A DNA stretch of 64,000 nucleotides from an uncultured virus (IMG/VR IMGVR_UViG_3300020037_002418). Lineage: Duplodnaviria; Heunggongvirae; Uroviricota; Caudoviricetes. The stretch lies in IMG/VR virus record IMGVR_UViG_3300020037_002418. One strand, 5' to 3'. Shown here one piece after another: positions 2,183 through 31,809 of the stretch (the stretch's first letter is position 1; every line of letters begins with the position of its first letter). The notes beneath the pieces were generated by a model that was not told where the DNA came from, made no database searches, and saw only the letters and a list, made by a program, of their open reading frames with translations. The position numbers and the translations under genes were made by a program.

Positions 2183-2362
2183 ATGAAGATCGACATTGAA
2201 CAGATCATGGAAGCCGTGGAAGCCGACGACAACATCGGTATCTGCACCGCTTGTGGGGAGGAGCAGTTTGGCTGTGAGCCAGATGCTCGTAACTACGAAT
2301 GTGAGTGCTGTGGGGCCATGAGCGTGTTTGGGGCCGATGAGCTGTTAATCAGCCACGTCTAA
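2183..2362 (+). CDS. small Zn-finger protein
   Basis: AAGGAG RBS; CTAC...CECC motif pairs. Confidence 0.65.
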   Translation: MKIDIEQIMEAVEADDNIGICTACGEEQFGCEPDARNYECECCGAMSVFGADELLISHV

Positions 2363-2433
2363 TGCCGTATTTCATCAACTGGCCTGCCCAGCTATTCGTT
2401 GGGTATGGCACACAATCACAAAGGAGAATTGAA

Positions 2434-2673
2434 GTGGACAACAACTTGCATCACCGCATCATTCGTGGGGTTCAGGCACTAGAGGACATGGGCGATCCGG
2501 ACTCCCTCAAGATCCTCAATCTGATTGATCGGCTCTTGGCCGATGATTGGACAGGGAGCGGCGTCTATGAGGCACTGGATGGGGCCTTAAAGGCCGCAGA
2601 AGGGGACGGGGCAATTCCCCAGAGAAATACTCAGTTCGACTGTGAAATCTGTGGCAAGCCAGGTGGCCACTAA
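2434..2673 (+). CDS. hypothetical protein
   Basis: AAAGGAG RBS before GTG 2434; followed by a terminator. Confidence 0.55.
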   Translation: MDNNLHHRIIRGVQALEDMGDPDSLKILNLIDRLLADDWTGSGVYEALDGALKAAEGDGAIPQRNTQFDCEICGKPGGH

Positions 2674-2687
2674 CCGTTTATTGCTCC

Positions 2688-2726
2688 GGGGCCGTCATTC
2701 CTCACAAGGGAGTGGCGGCCCTTTTT
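2688..2726 (+). terminator. intrinsic terminator
   Basis: GGGCCGTCATTCCT-loop-GGGAGTGGCGGCCC plus TTTTT. Confidence 0.8.
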
Positions 2727-2961
2727 GCATTACTAGTTGGCTCTAAAAGCGCTCAAACCTGCGACTAACTCACAAAGGAGGTGGTCCATGAGACCATAAA
2801 CCACAGTCCACTAGAGAATTCACTTGAGAAGCAAAGCACACAGAGATCCGTAAAAGAACAGCACCTTCACCCCCTTGGCCCCGTCATCCTTCACTGGGTG
2901 TCGGGGCTTATTTTATTGACAGACTGAAGTTTATGATTCTCGTCCACCTAAAGGAGATTTT

Positions 2962-3282
2962 ATGAGTAAACCGGAAACGCTAAAGATAGACGACGTTGAA
3001 TACGTCAGAAAGGATTCGATCCAAGTGCCACCTAGCGGCAACCGTGCCGTAGTGGTCATTGACCGGGGCTGGATCTTCGCTGGTGACGTGACCGAGAAAG
3101 ACGGTCGCATCTACCTGGATCGGGCCGTGTGGCTGTTTCGGTGGGAAGGCGTGGGCTTTGATGGTGCCATCGCTGATCCTAAAAACTCCGCCGTTAAGCT
3201 ACGAAAGATGAAGAACCGCGTCGAACTGCCGGCAGATGCGGAAATCTTCCGTATACCCGTCCAGGCCGATTGGGGCCTGTAA
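2962..3282 (+). CDS. conserved phage protein (DUF6948-like)
   Basis: LKIDDVEYVRKD...VVIDRGWIFAG...LFRW pattern; AAAGGAG RBS; TAATG-coupled to the Gly-rich ORF. Confidence 0.65.
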   Translation: MSKPETLKIDDVEYVRKDSIQVPPSGNRAVVVIDRGWIFAGDVTEKDGRIYLDRAVWLFRWEGVGFDGAIADPKNSAVKLRKMKNRVELPADAEIFRIPVQADWGL

Positions 3283-9740: not shown

Positions 9741-9852
9741 TCTGGTGCGTTAGTGTTCGTTGGACGTGCCAGAACGGGCACCCCATAGGGAAACCTGTGG
9801 GGTCCCTATTCTGTTTCGTCGAAGCAGAGTGTCACAAACCAGGAAAAAGACA

Positions 9853-11556
9853 ATGGCTAAAGCAGTTGCAGAGCAGCCGGAATTGTGTCTCGACGACAAG
9901 AACCGGGAGTTGATGGGCATGGTCGGGGACCGGAAGATGTCCGCCCGTGACCGAGCCAGCAACGCCGTGTTCAACATCACCGAGTACGGCATGGACTTCA
10001 TCCCCGCCATGACTCAGATGATCATGGACCGCGATGAGTCCGGTGGCATGGACGAGATGATCAAAGAGTTGGGGAAGGAGCCGCTCAATACCGAGCGGTA
10101 CATCGGCCCCGCCAAGATGGATGGTGTCGGTAAGCTGGGCCGGATGCTCTCGGGCACCACCTACGCTTGGGTCACCGCCAAGGATGGCATGGTGGCTCTG
10201 CCAGTGTCCACGGATGTGAAGGGTCTCCAGCAGGGCGACATGGTGCTCATTAGTGGGAAGGTCCAGCGGATCATCGGTAAAGACGCTGAGGCCCAGAACA
10301 TCGGCATCATCGTCACGGTGGAGGCCATCCCCGAGACCACTAAGGGTCAGATTCAGCAGATCATCGTGAAGATCGGTGAGCTGGTGCAGTCGGCCTGGCT
10401 CCATCACAGCCTCTTAGCGAACCCCCCGGCTATCGGCTCCAAGGTCATCTACGACGAGAAGCACCGGTTCGTCGTGGGCATGGCTCACACCGAGACCAAG
10501 GGCGAAGAGCTGCTGTCCAACATCGACAGCCTCCAGACCGTCCGGCGTCACCAAGTTGGCTCTCCGCATCCGGTGGCTGAGCAGGTCGTGAACCACTTCC
10601 GTGATGCCGTGGAGCATCCGGAATGGCTCAAGCAGCTCGGCTCTCGGGACCGCAAGAGCTACCTGTTCGTGGGTGGCACCGGTGGTGGCAAGTCCTATCA
10701 CATCAAGCTCATCTCCACGGAGATCCATGACCTGGTGGAGCAGTACACAGGCCAGCGTCAATCGCGGGTCTTCCTGTGTGATGCCTCGCAGTTCTGGAGT
10801 CCCTACTTCGGAGAGACTGAGCAACGCATCACGGCCTGGGCCAAGAAGATCGAAGCCCTGGGTCAGAAGAAGGTCATCTCCAAGGACGGCAAGGAGATTG
10901 CCATGCCGATCCTGGGTGTGATCGAGGAATGCGAGGCTCTGTTCCGTACCCGTGGTGGTGACCAGAACGCCTCGGGGCATCTCTTTGATCGGGTCCTGTC
11001 GCTGCTCTTGCAGAAGCTGGAGTCGGCGGAGAACGCCATTGGGGTGCCGATTGTGTGGGTCTGCTCCACGAACCGTCCGGACCTGATCGACGCGGCTGCC
11101 ATGCGGCGTATTGGGATGCGGAAGGCGATCTTCGGCAACCTGAAGCGTGACGGTGCTGATCAAGTTCTGGTGGCCAAGACCAGCGACCTGGGTAATGTCG
11201 GCACCAGCGAGGACTTCATCCAGCAGGTCGTGGACTACATCTACGATTCCGAGGACGGCCAGAAGATGGCCGAGGTGACGTTCCAGGACCGCAGTAAGCG
11301 GATACTGCATCGTCGGGATGTGGTCACACCGGCTGTGCTGGAAGAGGCTGTTAGCTCGGCCGTGGATCAGTGCATGACCAAGAGCCGTGAAGCTAAGAAG
11401 CTTCAGCGGGTCTCGGCAGCGGATGTGATCTCCTTCCTGGATAACCACTTCCGGCACTTAGCTCGGACCCTAACCGAGTACAACGTGCCCGAGCATTGCC
11501 CCGAATGGTTCGCGGAGGACGCCATTCCTGTTGGGGCTGTGAAGGTCTTGAAATAG
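9853..11556 (+). CDS. ARC/Mpa-like proteasome-type AAA+ ATPase
   Basis: Walker A GGTGGGKS, pore loop SPYFGETEQRI, Walker B-like VIEECEALFRTRG, SRH STNRPDLIDAAAMRR, ARC-type C-terminal EVTFQDRSKRILHRRDVVTPAVLEEAV, N-terminal tandem OB-like segments. Confidence 0.8.
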   Translation: MAKAVAEQPELCLDDKNRELMGMVGDRKMSARDRASNAVFNITEYGMDFIPAMTQMIMDRDESGGMDEMIKELGKEPLNTERYIGPAKMDGVGKLGRMLSGTTYAWVTAKDGMVALPVSTDVKGLQQGDMVLISGKVQRIIGKDAEAQNIGIIVTVEAIPETTKGQIQQIIVKIGELVQSAWLHHSLLANPPAIGSKVIYDEKHRFVVGMAHTETKGEELLSNIDSLQTVRRHQVGSPHPVAEQVVNHFRDAVEHPEWLKQLGSRDRKSYLFVGGTGGGKSYHIKLISTEIHDLVEQYTGQRQSRVFLCDASQFWSPYFGETEQRITAWAKKIEALGQKKVISKDGKEIAMPILGVIEECEALFRTRGGDQNASGHLFDRVLSLLLQKLESAENAIGVPIVWVCSTNRPDLIDAAAMRRIGMRKAIFGNLKRDGADQVLVAKTSDLGNVGTSEDFIQQVVDYIYDSEDGQKMAEVTFQDRSKRILHRRDVVTPAVLEEAVSSAVDQCMTKSREAKKLQRVSAADVISFLDNHFRHLARTLTEYNVPEHCPEWFAEDAIPVGAVKVLK

Positions 11557-12105: not shown

Positions 12106-12867
12106 ATGGACATAACGATTCACGGCACGAATGTGCACTGTGGGAAGGTCGCGCTGGGTAAGCCTACGACCAGTGTGAGCAAGTTCTGCCAGGCCATCCA
12201 GGAGTCCCGTATCACGGGCATGGACCCCGAGCCCATTCCAGACTGTGTGAAATGGATCTGCCGCAAAGGCCGTTATGAGGTCTACATCTTGGAGATGAAG
12301 CCCGAACTACGGTTGGTTAGCTGGGGAGCAGATGGCTACGAAGATGACGAGGGCGATTGGATCTACGAGCACAATCAAGGCTCCACGCCCTACACCGTGG
12401 CTACGCCGTACGTGGTAATGGCCATAAGAGTCATGGAAGGTCGGGCTTACGGCGTTCCATGCACGTTCTACCGCAACGAACCCCTGAAGAGCCTCGATGA
12501 CACGCTGTTCCAAACCAACCTCATGAACGTCGGGGTACAAGGCTACACCTGCGTGCATCCCGAGTTCACTAGCGACATGAGCTTGGCGGAGCAACTGGGG
12601 GAGATCGTCAACGCCTTCTGGTCGGGGGAGTTCAACGGCCACATGAGTGGCTCCAACTGGCACGAGTATGTGGAAAACGGCAGCGATTACCGGCTCCACA
12701 GTATCGAGGACTGGCAGAAGGCCTCTCTGAAGGACCCGAAGTTCGTGCTGGATGTGAAGTGGATGGGCGGAACCTATTGGACGCCCCGAAAGATCATCGA
12801 AAACAACCTGGGCGTGGCCGTTCCCAAAACCTCCCCTTACCTCGCCAATCAGATGCTGATGTCCTAG
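12106..12867 (+). CDS. prokaryotic E2-like protein (family D / PRTRC-B-like), free copy
   Basis: ATPYVV...FYRNEPLKSLDDTLFQTNLMNV...YTC...FWSGEFN; paralogous to the next gene; AAGGAG RBS. Confidence 0.65.
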   Translation: MDITIHGTNVHCGKVALGKPTTSVSKFCQAIQESRITGMDPEPIPDCVKWICRKGRYEVYILEMKPELRLVSWGADGYEDDEGDWIYEHNQGSTPYTVATPYVVMAIRVMEGRAYGVPCTFYRNEPLKSLDDTLFQTNLMNVGVQGYTCVHPEFTSDMSLAEQLGEIVNAFWSGEFNGHMSGSNWHEYVENGSDYRLHSIEDWQKASLKDPKFVLDVKWMGGTYWTPRKIIENNLGVAVPKTSPYLANQMLMS

Positions 12868-12995: not shown

Positions 12996-14126
12996 ATGAA
13001 GATGAAGAAGCATGAGCTAAAGCAGAAGCCGGCTGACGACACCGAATCGTCCCCACCGGCTGACAACACCCCCGTGGCCAGTAAGAACGTCACTTGTTCT
13101 TACGGCATCCACCGGGGCAACTTCCCCATTGCCGGCATGAAGGTCAAGGACGCCCGACGGGTGCTCCGCAAGCTCATCAAGGTCGATGATTCAGCAGCGG
13201 CTGTCATCAACGGCTCGGTGGTCGATGAGGATGAGACCATCTCATCTGAGACCACCATGCTGAGCTTCGTGAAGCCCAGTGCCGTGAAGGGGGCCGGTGA
13301 GACCATCACACTCTCGGACAAGACCGTCGAGGGTGTCGGCAAGAAGATGAACGTCGCTAAGTTCTGCGACCTGATCTCTAGCGTGGTGGCTACGGGCCTC
13401 AGTCCGGAGCCGATCCCCGACAATGTGAAGTGGATCGTGCGGGCCGGCAAGCTGGAGGTCCTAATTGTCGAGCTGAAGCCCGAACTCCGGCGTATCCAGT
13501 GGATCGCTGAGAACGGGGTGAAGCCTGATATGACGACCAGCAATGGCCAAGGCTACACGTTCCGCAAGCTGGCCACGCCTTATGTCGTCATGTCGGTGCC
13601 GTTCTGGGACGGGCAGCTTCATCCCGCTTTGGAGCTGTTCTACCGGAACGAGCCGCTCACCAGCCTCGACGACCCGCTCTACACCTGCAACCTGCTCAAT
13701 GTGAGCATGGGTAAACTCCTGGATAAGAATGTCGGACTCAAAACCTGGGTCTGCACGCAGTTCCTGGAGCTCCCCAAAAAGGCATCACGGGCGGATATCC
13801 TGTCCGAGATCATCAGTCACGTCTTTGGGGGTGGGTTTAACCGCTCCAGTGACCACAACGAGGGAGCCAGCGGGTTCTCCACGTACGAGAAGGCCTTCAA
13901 GGGCGGCAATCCCAGTTGCAAGATCGTCAGTGACGTGAATGCCTGGGAGAAGGCGTCGGAGAAGGACCCCTACTTCACGCTGGATGTGGACTGGCTCAAG
14001 GCCGGCTGCACGCCTCGGGACCTGATCGACTTCCGCCTGAAGCAGTTCAAGGTGGACAAAGGCCCAACCACCTCCACGGCCATCGGCAACCTGCTGCTGG
14101 GCGTCAAGGAAGAGGTGCAGTTCTAA
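12996..14126 (+). CDS. ubiquitin-like (beta-grasp) domain fused to a prokaryotic E2-like domain
   Basis: NVTCSYG...FPIAGMKVKDARR...AVINGSVVDEDETISSETTMLSFVKPSAVKG (Ubl ending in KG at 13292), then an E2-like part LATPYVV...FYRNEPL...LYTCNLLNV...WVC...GGFN. Confidence 0.7.
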   Translation: MKMKKHELKQKPADDTESSPPADNTPVASKNVTCSYGIHRGNFPIAGMKVKDARRVLRKLIKVDDSAAAVINGSVVDEDETISSETTMLSFVKPSAVKGAGETITLSDKTVEGVGKKMNVAKFCDLISSVVATGLSPEPIPDNVKWIVRAGKLEVLIVELKPELRRIQWIAENGVKPDMTTSNGQGYTFRKLATPYVVMSVPFWDGQLHPALELFYRNEPLTSLDDPLYTCNLLNVSMGKLLDKNVGLKTWVCTQFLELPKKASRADILSEIISHVFGGGFNRSSDHNEGASGFSTYEKAFKGGNPSCKIVSDVNAWEKASEKDPYFTLDVDWLKAGCTPRDLIDFRLKQFKVDKGPTTSTAIGNLLLGVKEEVQF

Positions 14127-14179: not shown

Positions 14180-14938
14180 ATGATCTATGAAACTACCGGG
14201 GTCTTTAAGACCCAACAACTCGAACCGCTGGAGATGAACCACGCCCGCTACATCATGGCGGCTGACGGTATCTACTACGAACAGAACGACGATCTGTTCC
14301 ACGCCAACACCCTCGTCAAGGAGTTCTACAACCCCCTCAACTTCGGCTCCATGAATATGCTGAAGGGGAAGGAGTTCTTTGAGCCCCGATTCCCCATCCT
14401 CCCCAAGGAGCTCTTGGAGCAGTGCCTGGGGTTCTTCACTCGCATCGAACTCACTCACGATGCCGAGTGCGGCCTGGTCCTGCTGTACGACCCCAACACC
14501 ATGGAATACTCCTGGTGCTGCCCCGAGCAGGAAGGCGGGGGCTGGGACCTGAAGTTCACCGTCCCGGTCCCTGGCAAGGACTACGACGAACGGCTGGTCC
14601 ACTTCGGGGACGTGCATCTCCATCCAGGGATGTCGGCCTACCACAGTGGCACCGACCATAGCGACGAGATGACAGCCAGCGACGGCCTGCATCTGGTCGT
14701 GGGGACGCCTACCGACCACAAGGGTGGCTGGTGGGACGAAGTCGAGAAGAAGTGGCACAAGTCCACCAAGAAGCTGGCCAACGAGTACTGTGCGGTGTTC
14801 GTGTCCGATGGCAACCGCTTCAAGATCGACCCCGCCGTGATCTTCGAGACCACCGACCTCACTCCCAAGCCCTTCCCCAAGGTGTGGCTGGAGAAGTTCA
14901 CGAAAGCCAAGAAAGGACAATGGGCCTATGGAGTCTAA
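14180..14938 (+). CDS. JAB/JAMM (MPN+) metallopeptidase
   Basis: AEC...GDVHLHPGMSAYHSGTD fits E-x(n)-HxH-x7-S-x2-D. Confidence 0.85.
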   Translation: MIYETTGVFKTQQLEPLEMNHARYIMAADGIYYEQNDDLFHANTLVKEFYNPLNFGSMNMLKGKEFFEPRFPILPKELLEQCLGFFTRIELTHDAECGLVLLYDPNTMEYSWCCPEQEGGGWDLKFTVPVPGKDYDERLVHFGDVHLHPGMSAYHSGTDHSDEMTASDGLHLVVGTPTDHKGGWWDEVEKKWHKSTKKLANEYCAVFVSDGNRFKIDPAVIFETTDLTPKPFPKVWLEKFTKAKKGQWAYGV

Positions 14939-17702: not shown

Positions 17703-18389
17703 GTGAACATTGAGTGCGGAAAGGAATTCGGCAGGCTAACCGTACTATCCAGGCACGGAACCGCCATTTTCGGAAAAGACAAGAAGCAGGTGTCAACGTG
17801 GCTCTGTAAGTGTGCTTGCGGGACAGAGCTTGTGGTTAGCCGCAACTCGCTGCGGAAGGGTACAGGGTCGTGCGGATGCCTCCAAAGGGAGCGGGCCAAG
17901 GAGCATCACCTTAAGCACGGGAAGGCTGGAACTAGGATGTACGGCCTGTGGCAGCAGATGGTGCAGAGATGCAATAGCCCTCTGAACGAAGCATACGGAA
18001 AATATGGTGCCGCTGGTGTTTCTGTGTGTGACAGATGGCTTGGCGAGTCTGGCTACGAGAACTTCATGGCAGACGTAGGGAACTCTCGGCCGAGCACTGC
18101 TTACTCGCTGGATAGGTTTCCTAACCCGTTTGGTAATTACGAACCAGGGAACGTCCGATGGGCCACCAAAAAAGACCAGGCCAGAAACCTGAGGGCCACA
18201 TGCTGGATCTTGCTCAATGACGCAAGAATTCACCCAGTAGATGTTGCCAAGGCAGTTGGCATGAAAGACGTCTCTGGACTTCTCAAGCGAATCAAGAAAC
18301 TAGGCCTTCCTAAAGGGCCCACTTCTGCCGAATTAGTCCTTACTAAACAAGAACAGGAGATTGTTAAGTGCAAATTTCAGCCAGCGTAG
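17703..18389 (+). CDS. HNH-type homing endonuclease
   Basis: GKEFGRLTV...WLCKCACG...SCGC...YGAAGVSVCDRW...SLDR...NYEPGNVRWAT. Confidence 0.85.
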   Translation: MNIECGKEFGRLTVLSRHGTAIFGKDKKQVSTWLCKCACGTELVVSRNSLRKGTGSCGCLQRERAKEHHLKHGKAGTRMYGLWQQMVQRCNSPLNEAYGKYGAAGVSVCDRWLGESGYENFMADVGNSRPSTAYSLDRFPNPFGNYEPGNVRWATKKDQARNLRATCWILLNDARIHPVDVAKAVGMKDVSGLLKRIKKLGLPKGPTSAELVLTKQEQEIVKCKFQPA

Positions 18390-19313: not shown

Positions 19314-19979
19314 ATGGCTGTTAAAGCCAAGGCCCCGGCTGCCACGAAGCCGGAATTCGGGACCATGAAGCGGATGGCGATAGCCGACCTTCGTGGTGCC
19401 ACCCACAACCCCAAGAGCCGCACGGCTTCTAACTCTAATCCGCTCAAAAGGCTGATCCGGAGCATCGAAGAGATCGGGTTGATCTACCCGATTGCCATCG
19501 ACAAGGAAGGAACCGTCATCGACGGCCACCGTCGCCTCACAGCCTGTAAGCACATGGGCTGGACCGAGGTGCCGGTGATCGTGGTTCCCAATGAGAACGC
19601 CTCCCTGGTCTACGCTGAGGTGAATGCCAACGCGGAGATGATGTCGGGCCTCCAGATCCTCCAGGTCTACTTGCAACAGCCCGATGCTGTGGCTGCGAAG
19701 ACTCGGAAGACGTTGGAGCGGTACGAGGAGGTGTTCGGTCGAGTGACCATGAAGAAGCTGGTGAAGGCCAAGCTCTCGTTCCACACCTTGGGACTGGCTC
19801 AACGCATCGCCCGGTACGTGGAGGATGAATCGGACGAGTATCTCAACAAGGTGGTGGAGTACCTCATCACCAAACGCAACGGCCGGATCGTGCGGAGCTA
19901 CATCACCCTCAAACAGGCCCCGAGCACGCTCTGGGACGTGATCCGTAAGGGTCGCAACTTAGAACTGGCCTTCACTTAG
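19314..19979 (+). CDS. ParB/Srx N-terminal domain protein
   Basis: NPK...LIRSIEEIGLIYPIAI...VIDGHRRLTAC. Confidence 0.85.
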   Translation: MAVKAKAPAATKPEFGTMKRMAIADLRGATHNPKSRTASNSNPLKRLIRSIEEIGLIYPIAIDKEGTVIDGHRRLTACKHMGWTEVPVIVVPNENASLVYAEVNANAEMMSGLQILQVYLQQPDAVAAKTRKTLERYEEVFGRVTMKKLVKAKLSFHTLGLAQRIARYVEDESDEYLNKVVEYLITKRNGRIVRSYITLKQAPSTLWDVIRKGRNLELAFT

Positions 19980-20339: not shown

Positions 20340-20675
20340 ATGACCGACAAATACAAACTCGTGGGGCACGAAGTGGTGCCCTGCGAGAGCCTTGAGGAAT
20401 GGGCGGATTGGTATGAGTCCACGTTTAAGAAAGACGGGCCTAGCCGTATCGTCAAAAGGACTGAGATCGGAGAAGCTACAGTTTCCACCGTCTTCCTAAG
20501 CATCGACTACAACTTTTTTAACGAGGGTTCGCCTATCCTGTTTGAGACTATGTGTTTTTGGTCTAATAATCCTGAGCTAAACGGAACACAGGAAAGGTAT
20601 TCAACATGGGAACAGGCGGAAGCAGGCCACAATCGGATGGTGGGACTCATGAAGGCGGCGATGGGGGGAAGCTAA
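20340..20675 (+). CDS. conserved phage hypothetical protein
   Basis: VSTVFLSIDYNF...PILFETMCF...RYSTWEQAEAGH pattern. Confidence 0.7.
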   Translation: MTDKYKLVGHEVVPCESLEEWADWYESTFKKDGPSRIVKRTEIGEATVSTVFLSIDYNFFNEGSPILFETMCFWSNNPELNGTQERYSTWEQAEAGHNRMVGLMKAAMGGS

Positions 20676-21127
20676 GTCTCCTACTAGAGTCTGGTAAAGT
20701 CGTCACATCAACAGATGGGTGCTGGGAGTGGCGTGGCACCATGCATTCGTGCGGATACGGATACAAAAACTCTGGTGGAAAATCGCATCTCGCACATCGA
20801 CTCGCTTACGAGGCAGTCAATGGACCAATACCACGCGGTATGGTCGTAATGCACAAGTGCGACAACCCACCGTGCGTCAGGCCCGATCATCTTGCCGTTG
20901 GCACACAGGCAGAGAACATACGGGACTGCAAGAGAAAGGGCCGAATCTCAAGGATCGCGAAGGCCAGTGGCGAGAAGAACGGGAATTCCATCCTCACCAA
21001 AGATCAGATCGTTGAAATTAGGCAAAAGTATGCCAGCGGTAAGTACACGCTAAAGGACCTTGGGGGCGAGTATAAAACTCACTTCTCAAATATCAGCCTT
21101 ATAGTTCGCAATAAGGTCTGGAAGTAG
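20606..21127 (+). CDS. HNH endonuclease (HNH_3 type)
   Basis: CWEW...GYG...AHRLAY...GPIP...VMHKCDNPPCVRPDHL..GT..EN; start uncertain. Confidence 0.9.
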   Translation: MGTGGSRPQSDGGTHEGGDGGKLSLLLESGKVVTSTDGCWEWRGTMHSCGYGYKNSGGKSHLAHRLAYEAVNGPIPRGMVVMHKCDNPPCVRPDHLAVGTQAENIRDCKRKGRISRIAKASGEKNGNSILTKDQIVEIRQKYASGKYTLKDLGGEYKTHFSNISLIVRNKVWK

Positions 21128-31359: not shown

Positions 31360-31809
31360 TCACAACAGCCTCACGAGCGGGTTCAGCCAGAAGTTATTCC
31401 AGCCACTTAGAACGCAGAAGTTCCGGTTGAACTTCCCGTCGTGGTGCAGGTGGTGATTTTCGGGCGAGGCGATAACCCTATAGGCTTGTAGGAATCGCAG
31501 GACGCGGTGTACTGCTGGGCTGCGGCTGCGTCGATGGGCGTAATAGTGCGGTACTTGGGCGAGCATGAGGAAGCTGCCGAAGGCGGCAATGAACGGCGAC
31601 CAGAGCCAGCAGCCGACGCACAGGATCAGGAGTCCTCCAGGCATTGGTTGCCAGTCGAACTCGACCATGTTCAGTGGGTCTTCGTGATGTTCTCGGAACT
31701 TCCGTACCATGTCAGGCGTATTCCACCCGTAGTCAGTGAAGCAGTGGTAAATGCCAACCAAGGCGTCCATGACCACGTAGGCGGCTAGGATTTCCAGGAA
31801 GGCGATCAC
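31360..31809 (-). CDS. CarF/TMEM189 (Kua, FAD4-like) lipid desaturase family protein
   Basis: GIYHCFTD, FREHH.DP, QVPHYYAH, HHLHH and NFCVLSGW.N..L motifs. Confidence 0.8.
   Translation of the reverse strand: MIAFLEILAAYVVMDALVGIYHCFTDYGWNTPDMVRKFREHHEDPLNMVEFDWQPMPGGLLILCVGCWLWSPFIAAFGSFLMLAQVPHYYAHRRSRSPAVHRVLRFLQAYRVIASPENHHLHHDGKFNRNFCVLSGWNNFWLNPLVRLL

Follow-up and report, generated by a model that had tools for sequence, protein, structure and literature searches.

How does a ubiquitin-like modifier reach its activating enzyme if it is encoded as part of a conjugating enzyme? The question is raised by a 64,000-nt stretch of the IMG/VR record IMGVR_UViG_3300020037_002418. We call this stretch the window, and all position numbers refer to it unless another locus is named with them. 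Judging by its gene content, the window reads as a phage genome, and the phage is one of planctomycete bacteria (Planctomycetota). On the + strand, at 9.7-15.8 kb, lies a tight row of genes for an AAA+ ATPase, a small protein, a protein that resembles ubiquitin-conjugating enzymes (E2-like), a fusion of a ubiquitin-like (Ubl) domain to another E2-like domain, a JAB peptidase, and a ubiquitin-activating type of enzyme (E1). As is established for ThiF, MoeB, and Uba proteins, an E1 acts on a modifier only when the modifier's C-terminal carboxylate is free.

We propose that the Ubl (residues 1-99 of the fusion) is made as a pre-protein, with its reactive C-terminal Lys-Gly joined by a peptide bond to an E2-like enzyme of the cysteine type, and that the operon's JAB/JAMM metallopeptidase cuts after Gly99. 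The cut would free the carboxylate of Gly99 for adenylation by the small ThiF-type E1 (which has Cys203). It would also free the E2-like enzyme (with Cys253 and His275), whose new N terminus would be like that of free E2 homologs. Conjugation of the Ubl to targets by the E1 and E2 might follow, and these targets could be meant for the AAA+ ATPase of the operon. We infer the cut, and the protease that makes it, by comparison with relatives, and we put the probability of JAB cleavage after Gly99 at roughly 70%. It is the best reading of the locus because the Lys-Gly (KG) is strictly conserved, because relatives of the Ubl are split from the E2 or carry short tails, because the key residues of the JAB and the E1 are intact, and because the sole Ubl is the fused one.

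The Ubl domain and its junction

The open reading frame (ORF) of the fusion runs from an ATG at 12996 to a stop at 14124-14126 and encodes 376 amino acids, with no internal stop or frameshift. The ATG is preceded, at a distance of 9 nt, by GGAG, and an MKxKK start is common to all of the full-length homologs.

As modelled, the N-terminal domain of the fusion is a ubiquitin-like beta-grasp with a flexible tail that ends in glycine. In an AlphaFold2 (AF2) model from a 52-row alignment (mean predicted local distance difference test, or pLDDT, of 86), residues 1-28 are disordered, the fold occupies residues 29-92, and the seven-residue tail KPSAVKG follows. Four strands (32-36, 39-43, 68-71, and 88-92) and a helix (50-61) are arranged in beta-beta-alpha-beta-beta order within residues 32-92. 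When we ran a wide VIA-align search with the model of the whole fusion, the top 50 rows were all of ubiquitin, Ubl, or MoaD type (best Z 8.6, root-mean-square deviation (rmsd) 2.0, 68 residues aligned). Foldseek with the same model against PDB found ubiquitin (1yiw, TMt 0.72, rmsd 2.3); the Ubl domain alone was matched, and the E-values were weak. The fold matches from the two tools include ubiquitin, Fubi, ISG15, SUMO, MoaD, and the Ubl of the bacterial Bil system. In the family libraries, the Ubl part had a weak match to ThiS (E = 0.0047). Beyond the fused one, no Ubl domain was found in the window or in its closest record, the IMG/VR virus contig G001 (56.9 kb, 81% complete), which has 90% of the window's sampled words in common with it.

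Residues 91-99 of the fusion are FVKPSAVKG, and Gly99 is encoded by codon 13290-13292. An initial annotation of this DNA, made from the sequence alone, had ended the Ubl at LSFVKPSAVKG with this same codon, which is exact to the base. It had also placed the domain boundary by aligning the residues after Gly99 with the N terminus of the free E2-like paralog from the same operon, and here too we agree. These residues (AGETITLSDK...MNVAKFCDLI) pair with the start of the paralog (MDITIHG...TSVSKFCQAI), so that MDITIHG... is aligned to ETITLSD, just past A100-G101. BLASTP of the C-terminal part of the fusion against the paralog extends over 288 columns (identity and E-value are in Table 1), and our MAFFT alignments A2 and A4 concur. 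Furthermore, the free E2 homologs of other loci start (with M-A/S/P-E-x-I) 1-2 residues past the position of Gly99.

The junction itself is conserved. K98 and G99 are unchanged in all 26 of the fused homologs in alignment A1, which are 35-69% identical to the window's protein. The conservation of K98-G99, in this alignment and in the larger set of fused proteins described below, is far beyond chance.

Fused, split, and tailed relatives

A profile of the E2-like domain, used without regard to protein length, matched 1305 representative clusters at E ≤ 0.001, of which 191 were at E ≤ 1e-30. Among the best 150 representative clusters, 39 have an N-terminal Ubl domain. (When just the Ubl was used as the query of a word-index search, 2 proteins matched, and one was a fragment.) We collected 197 family proteins, and 60 of them are fused. 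The junction dipeptide is KG in 59 of these 60 and RG in the other. The residue after the junction glycine is usually Ala (32 proteins), or else Ser (9), Val (6), Gly (4), or another residue (9). The spacer between the junction and the E2-like domain is about 0 to 80 residues long, with no conserved sequence.

We then compared 29 related loci, from 8 Planctomycetota genome contigs, 1 viral contig, and 20 metagenome contigs (these loci have L numbers below). The gene order is AAA, one or two Ubl genes, E2, JAB, and E1, with the Ubl and the E2 mostly in separate genes. The initial annotation had proposed a search for split Ubl and E2 genes in homologous loci; they are present in the majority of the 29, and many of the Ubl genes end at the same glycine. 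In 21 of the loci we could read the ends of 24 Ubl domains. Nine of the 24 stop exactly at KG, and another 10 have KG followed by a tail of 1-15 residues (such as Y, AA, QRT, GTWR, GTRR, AGAM, ARAW, or ACRWPSAS). Two have long tails, one is fused (L010), and two, which are extra copies from tandem pairs, stop at MG or MGG. Beyond these 24, the Ubl of L009 stops at KG, that of L028 has RG plus nine residues, and the stand-alone protein P0053 ends in KG. Since tails are found on many of the split Ubls, C-terminal processing appears to be a normal need in the Ubl-E2 family.

Two loci illustrate how little separates the fused and split forms. In L009, which is on a virus contig (6016-7227), and in L004 (8001-9032), the Ubl and the E2 are in one frame, with a stop and 1-8 codons between them. 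In L009, the E2 starts in the same frame, one codon past the stop that follows the Ubl's KG. In either locus, a single substitution would create a fusion. We also built a FastTree of 168 E2 domains and labelled 152 of them as fused or free (16 of unclear state were left unlabelled). The label requires at least 27 changes on this tree, as compared to 37-53 changes in 200 shuffles of the labels, so fusion and fission have been frequent but not random. The fused and split states would thus seem to behave as interchangeable.

We also considered that phages might have the fused form and cells the split form. This is ruled out by L009, a viral contig with split genes.

Some cellular loci have tandem Ubl genes (L002, 8001-8592; L007, 8001-8513; L024, 510-1190). 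One copy of the pair ends in KG and the other in MG or MGG; in L024, the ending is VMG plus a 26-residue tail. In L001, the Ubl ORF (163-567) extends 48 residues beyond KG, in a frame that overlaps the start of the E2, and there is an in-frame stop inside the E1 match (2246-3010). These oddities of L001 may reflect an assembly error or a decaying locus.

Is the junction cut, and by what?

The catalytic residues of the locus are in place. In the JAB, E96, H146, H148, S156, and D159 are invariant across 19 of 19 aligned homologs. In the E1, 10 of 10 aligned sequences have the GLGGxG motif, D129-N-H-x-T-R134, and Cys203. In the E2-like domain, C253 and H275 are near-invariant across 52 sequences; H275 lies 22 residues after C253, in a modelled helix (265-278). 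The JAB has sub-threshold matches to PRTRC_A (E = 1.2e-8, 34.8 bits, with a cut-off of 101.8) and DUF2016 (E = 8.7e-4, 19.4 bits, with a cut-off of 24.3). The E1 has 21.3 bits against PRTRC_ThiF, whose cut-off is 144.75. The phage has just one Ubl, which is fused, and yet the catalytic residues of the JAB, the E1, and the E2-like domain are intact, so a JAB cut after Gly99 would be the simplest reading.

"E2-like" is our working label for residues 100-376, a stretch of 277 amino acids, and we accept it on the strength of the fold, the Cys/His pattern, and the company of an E1, a JAB, and a Ubl, which together point weakly to an E2. Folded alone with AF2, this domain has a pLDDT of 84. When the domain alone was compared to 48,161 chains with VIA-align, the rows were almost all UBC/E2, RWD, or UEV folds. 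They include E2S (1zdn_A; Z 5.2, rmsd 4.1, 122 aligned) and BubB from Citrobacter (9eav_D, Z 4.6), as well as UbcH7, FANCL, the RWD domain of Knl1, and CdnG-E2. The neighbours of the domain in the ESM Atlas are mostly viral clusters, with PF14460 on 19-30% of their members (the recognition value is 1616, which is less than the mark of 2300). PF14460 (Prok-E2_D) itself did not match the window's E2-like protein at E ≤ 10, and in NCBIfam the E2 part matched only TftA, at E = 0.061. Neither the fusion, nor either of its halves, nor the free paralog reached the curated cut-off of any family in Pfam, NCBIfam, PHROGs, or PADLOC.

To ask about the pairing of the JAB with the junction by structure prediction, we modelled the JAB with residues 28-135 of the fusion and Zn, in three runs and with three controls. 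The median score was 0.52 (0.58, 0.51, and 0.52) and the best control scored 0.00; contacts agreed at ≥86% between runs, and the partner's pLDDT was ≥70. In the calibration of this score, 116 of 157 solved complexes came up to the mark, as did 2 of 215 mismatched pairs. Passing scores of ≤0.60, however, came from only 18 of the 157 solved complexes, and also from both of the mismatched pairs that passed. Our run departs from the calibration in its use of its own alignments and of a riding Zn. That the prediction passes may reflect only a likeness to solved JAB-Ubl complexes.

Several points weigh against cleavage by the JAB or against our account of its products. The complex prediction supports the pairing of the JAB with the junction only weakly. 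Just two residues, A-G, lie between Gly99 and the point where the E2-like domain begins its first strand, and a protease may not reach the site easily. The sole role of the JAB could be deconjugation, and KG could be conserved through descent or because of the fold. As to the E2, its identity rests on the fold, which is a weak match, and on context, with no family match. The best VIA-align Z is just 5.4, which by the tool's own warning is a common level, and Foldseek with the domain alone found nothing at E ≤ 0.001. Twenty-seven family members had no match in Pfam or NCBIfam at E ≤ 1, and just 1 of 144 further members (P0156) had a match to Prok-E2_D (E = 8e-4, 19.6 bits, under the cut-off of 25).

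The alternative that survives best, although we think it unlikely, is that the fusion stays intact and that its Ubl is a built-in module that is not conjugated, like the Ubl domains of parkin or Rad23. Such a module could dock the E2-like enzyme on the E1, the JAB, or the AAA+ ATPase, or it could regulate the enzyme in cis. Integral Ubl domains are common in eukaryotic proteins, and many of these were among the VIA-align rows; also, the window's protein has a very short linker. However, an intact fusion would leave the phage with an E1, an E2-like enzyme, and a JAB whose active sites are intact, and with no Ubl that can be conjugated. It is also hard to explain, without a free C terminus, why a strict KG sits beside a hypervariable linker. 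And the frequent interchange with split genes that end at the same glycine is hard to explain if the fusion is never cut.

Alternatively, a cut at KG or close to it might be the work of a host protease, or of the C-terminal domain itself with its Cys and His, so that the JAB would only remove the Ubl from targets. We consider this very unlikely. The near-invariant Cys and His of the C-terminal domain, together with its weak match to the E2 fold, leave room for another activity, and JABs of related systems are described as also reversing conjugation (10.1101/2023.09.26.559546). But pre-processing is carried out by the JAB in both of the bacterial systems studied, according to the accounts of each (10.1101/2024.11.21.623953, 10.1101/2023.09.26.559546). 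Furthermore, the top VIA-align rows for the C-terminal domain are nearly all UBC, RWD, or UEV folds and not peptidases, and the tailed Ubls encoded by split genes need trimming although no Cys/His domain is attached to them.

Finally, that the ORF of the fusion is artefactual or a gene in decay, in which the stop between two genes was lost and a free E2 is made from an internal start, is suggested by the shared frame of the L009 and L004 genes and by a GTG codon (V97) two codons 5' of the junction, but it is hardly credible given that the fusion is retained in the 26 homologs of alignment A1 and in 39 of the best 150 representative clusters, that the ORF is free of stops and frameshifts, and that no Shine-Dalgarno-like sequence precedes the GTG.

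We therefore return to known systems with cleavage by the JAB after Gly99 as the preferred reading.

Known systems and the rest of the locus

The closest precedent is Type I Bub. There, the Ubl is described as always encoded as a fusion to the E2 (BubAB; 10.1101/2024.11.21.623953). The JAB domain of BubCD cuts BubAB right after the conserved G229, as Ye et al. report from active-site mutants and Edman sequencing (10.1101/2024.11.21.623953). The window shares with Type I Bub a Ubl and an E2-like domain in one ORF, a conserved glycine at the junction, and a JAB/JAMM peptidase in the operon. In contrast to Bub, where the JAB and the E1 are fused as BubCD, the window has them as separate genes (their ORFs overlap, in different frames). 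The window's E1 and E2-like protein have conserved cysteines, C203 and C253, in place of the oxyester residues of Bub (Tyr in the E1 and Ser in the E2). Also unlike Bub, the fusion has one beta-grasp domain (BubAB has 1-3, with extra N-terminal domains), and an AAA+ ATPase is linked to the operon. The likeness of the E2-like domain to the fold of BubB is weak (see the Z for 9eav_D above). The serine protease DUF6527 (BubE) had no Pfam match in the 8 proteins of the operon region or in 60 further ORFs of the window. Because the JAB and the E1 are separate, because the E1 and the E2-like protein have conserved cysteines, and because DUF6527 was not found, the locus is not a Bub operon.

Another relative is Bil, in which the JAB protein BilC is reported to remove the residue after G97 of BilA and also to cut a Ubl-GFP fusion (Chambers et al., 10.1101/2023.09.26.559546). 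The order Ubl-E2-JAB-E1 is common to Bil and the window, and so, to judge by conserved residues, is a cysteine-based E1 and E2. Also, BilC pre-processes a Ubl with extra C-terminal residues, which is comparable to the Ubls with KG plus a tail in the window's family. Unlike the window's E1, which has 267 amino acids and a single ThiF domain, the E1 of Bil is large and multidomain (IAD, AAD, and CYS). And the Ubl and E2 of Bil are separate genes, while the window's copy is fused and carried by a phage. PADLOC found no system above threshold in the window's operon, and just an E1-E2 match at 0.0096.

Among the operons described by Iyer, Burroughs and Aravind in 2006 (PMC1779556), type 6d includes an E2-like protein in which a conserved Cys is followed, within a helix further along the chain, by a conserved His. 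In type 6e, by the same account, a polyUbl is fused to an inactive E2-like domain (Iyer et al. 2006, PMC1779556). The window's locus resembles 6d/PRTRC in having a small Ubl with a C-terminal glycine and an E2-like Cys with a His downstream in a helix (C253 and H275). Further likenesses may be the additional N-terminal domain of the JAB, whose PRTRC_A and DUF2016 scores are under the cut-offs, and the presence of a small ThiF-type E1 and of a ParB-like gene in the vicinity. It differs from 6d as described in that it has an AAA+ ATPase and a Ubl-E2 fusion. The initial annotation's label of PRTRC-C type for the Ubl does not hold. PRTRC_C (TIGR03738) had no match to the window's Ubl at E ≤ 10, and it was found in 0 of 151 Planctomycetota genomes, including the operon-carrying genome G002; the positive control, Bacteroides thetaiotaomicron, matched. 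PRTRC_B (TIGR03737) did not match the window's proteins, nor 27 family members at E ≤ 1, and PRTRC_parB did not match the proteins of the window's operon region. The annotation's larger proposal, of a Ubl-E2 pre-protein from which the JAB releases the Ubl after KG, is well supported by comparison: by the junction, the split relatives, the sole Ubl, the catalytic residues, and the precedents from Bub and Bil. Its further idea, that the cut would yield Ubl and E2 in a 1:1 ratio and serve as an activation switch, is speculative.

In eukaryotes, polyubiquitin and the fusions of ubiquitin to ribosomal proteins also have the C-terminal glycine in a peptide bond, and they are cut by deubiquitinases to give equimolar products. 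In those precursors, the partner is ubiquitin or a ribosomal protein instead of an E2, and the proteases are mostly cysteine deubiquitinases.

The features of the window's operon and its surroundings are listed in Table 1.

Table 1. The Ubl-E2 operon and nearby features in the window (E, E-value).
Feature	Position	Strand	Evidence or remark
AAA+ ATPase	9760..11556	+	PF00004, E 1.3e-11; first gene of the operon; internal ATG at 9853 is possibly the true start
Small protein, 134 aa	11588..11992	+	Family-less; start uncertain
Free E2-like paralog, 253 aa	12106..12867	+	E 3e-46 (36% identity) against the fusion's C-terminal part
Ubl (beta-grasp) domain of the fusion, residues 1-99	12996..13292	+	AF2 model, VIA-align, Foldseek
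Predicted processing site, K98-G99 / A100	13287..13295	+	KG/RG junction of fused homologs; split Ubl genes end there; putative cut after codon 13290-13292
E2-like domain of the fusion, residues 100-376	13293..14126	+	Cys253 at 13752-13754; His275 at 13818-13820
JAB/JAMM peptidase with an extra N-terminal domain	14180..14938	+	Weak PRTRC_A and DUF2016 matches
Small ThiF-type E1, 267 aa	14928..15731	+	PF00899, 46.2 bits (cut-off 28.1)
ParB-like protein	19314..19979	+	PF02195, 32.4 bits (cut-off 26.3); 3.6 kb downstream; possible partner of the cassette

The AAA+ ATPase has a weak full-length likeness to the model of the mycobacterial proteasome ATPase (pup_AAA, E = 1.3e-20, far under the cut-off), and in the PADLOC scan it is also weakly like the TRIP13 and IetA models. 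A homolog of it lies immediately 5' of the Ubl gene in 13 related loci (L002-L009, L011, L019, L020, L028, and L029). This conserved neighbour hints that Ubl tagging feeds an unfoldase. The 134-aa protein had no match in Pfam, NCBIfam, PHROGs, or PADLOC, and tblastn did not find it at the 8 genome loci.

The free E2-like paralog probably starts at the ATG at 12106. It belongs to a clade of its own, with P0064 (80%), P0117, P0077, P0132, P0124, P0158, and P0156. In this clade the conserved Cys is present and the RSSExHEG loop is missing, and in alignment A4 the window's copy is without the conserved His as well. Two separate E2 matches were not seen in any of the 29 loci. We considered that the paralog might be an inactive, Cys-less copy resembling UEV proteins, as the large alignment A2 suggested, but the focused alignment A4 rules this out, as the Cys is kept.

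Phage-type genes in the window, as identified with PHROGs and Pfam, encode a DNA helicase, two HNH endonucleases, a repair exonuclease, a portal- or adaptor-like protein, and a tail-fibre-like protein; the majority of the ORFs have no family in these databases. The two HNH genes (17703-18389 and 20606-21127, both on the + strand) are in the early or replication region. On the - strand, an ORF with a lipid desaturase domain (31360-31809; PF10520, E = 4.3e-18) is an unusual auxiliary gene for a phage.

We also noticed some features of the related loci. The viral JAB of L009 (7217-8638) has a C-terminal extension of ~230 residues, which is of low complexity, acidic, and lysine-rich, and which is absent from the window's JAB. 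The chromosomal copies (L002, L004, L007, and L008) are flanked by housekeeping genes (FolD, PurK-like), and these four loci also have a second, longer protein of the ThiF family (370-413 amino acids). A divergent helix-turn-helix (HTH) protein of the Cro/C1 type lies beside the cassettes of L002 and L004.

A Ubl-E2 pre-protein that is cut by a JAB is not new in kind, as BubAB is a direct precedent. What is new here is the family itself, the chemistry, which appears from conserved residues to be cysteine-based, the link to an AAA+ ATPase, and the presence on a phage. In the literature that we searched, no AAA-Ubl-E2-JAB-E1 operon is described for phages or for Planctomycetota, although the supplementary operon lists of the preprints could include relatives. 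We file the locus as an unclassified, largely viral and planctomycetal branch of the Ubl-E2-JAB-E1 cassettes, with the same pre-protein design. More speculatively, and we think it improbable, the phage might carry a self-contained Ubl cascade that is wired to a proteasome-ATPase-like unfoldase and that tags host proteins (such as defence proteins) for unfolding or removal. The cellular copies with the HTH protein and the second ThiF protein would then be the host's version, and the fusion would act as a timing switch that keeps the tag inert until the JAB is made.

Only recently has it been shown that bacterial systems for Ubl conjugation (CBASS with Cap2/Cap3, Bil, and Bub) are functional and that they take part in defence against phages. 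To these, the locus adds a large family that has no database classification, as represented by the 1305 clusters. Within the family, the modifier switches among three forms: a stand-alone protein that ends at the glycine, a stand-alone protein whose glycine is followed by a short tail, and a domain fused to its own E2. If our proposal is correct, then this would be a second, independent pre-protein of the BubAB type, which suggests that making the tag within the enzyme and then cutting it out is a recurrent solution. And a phage cassette beside a proteasome-ATPase-like AAA+ protein would be a tractable place to ask whether phages use Ubl tagging against their hosts.

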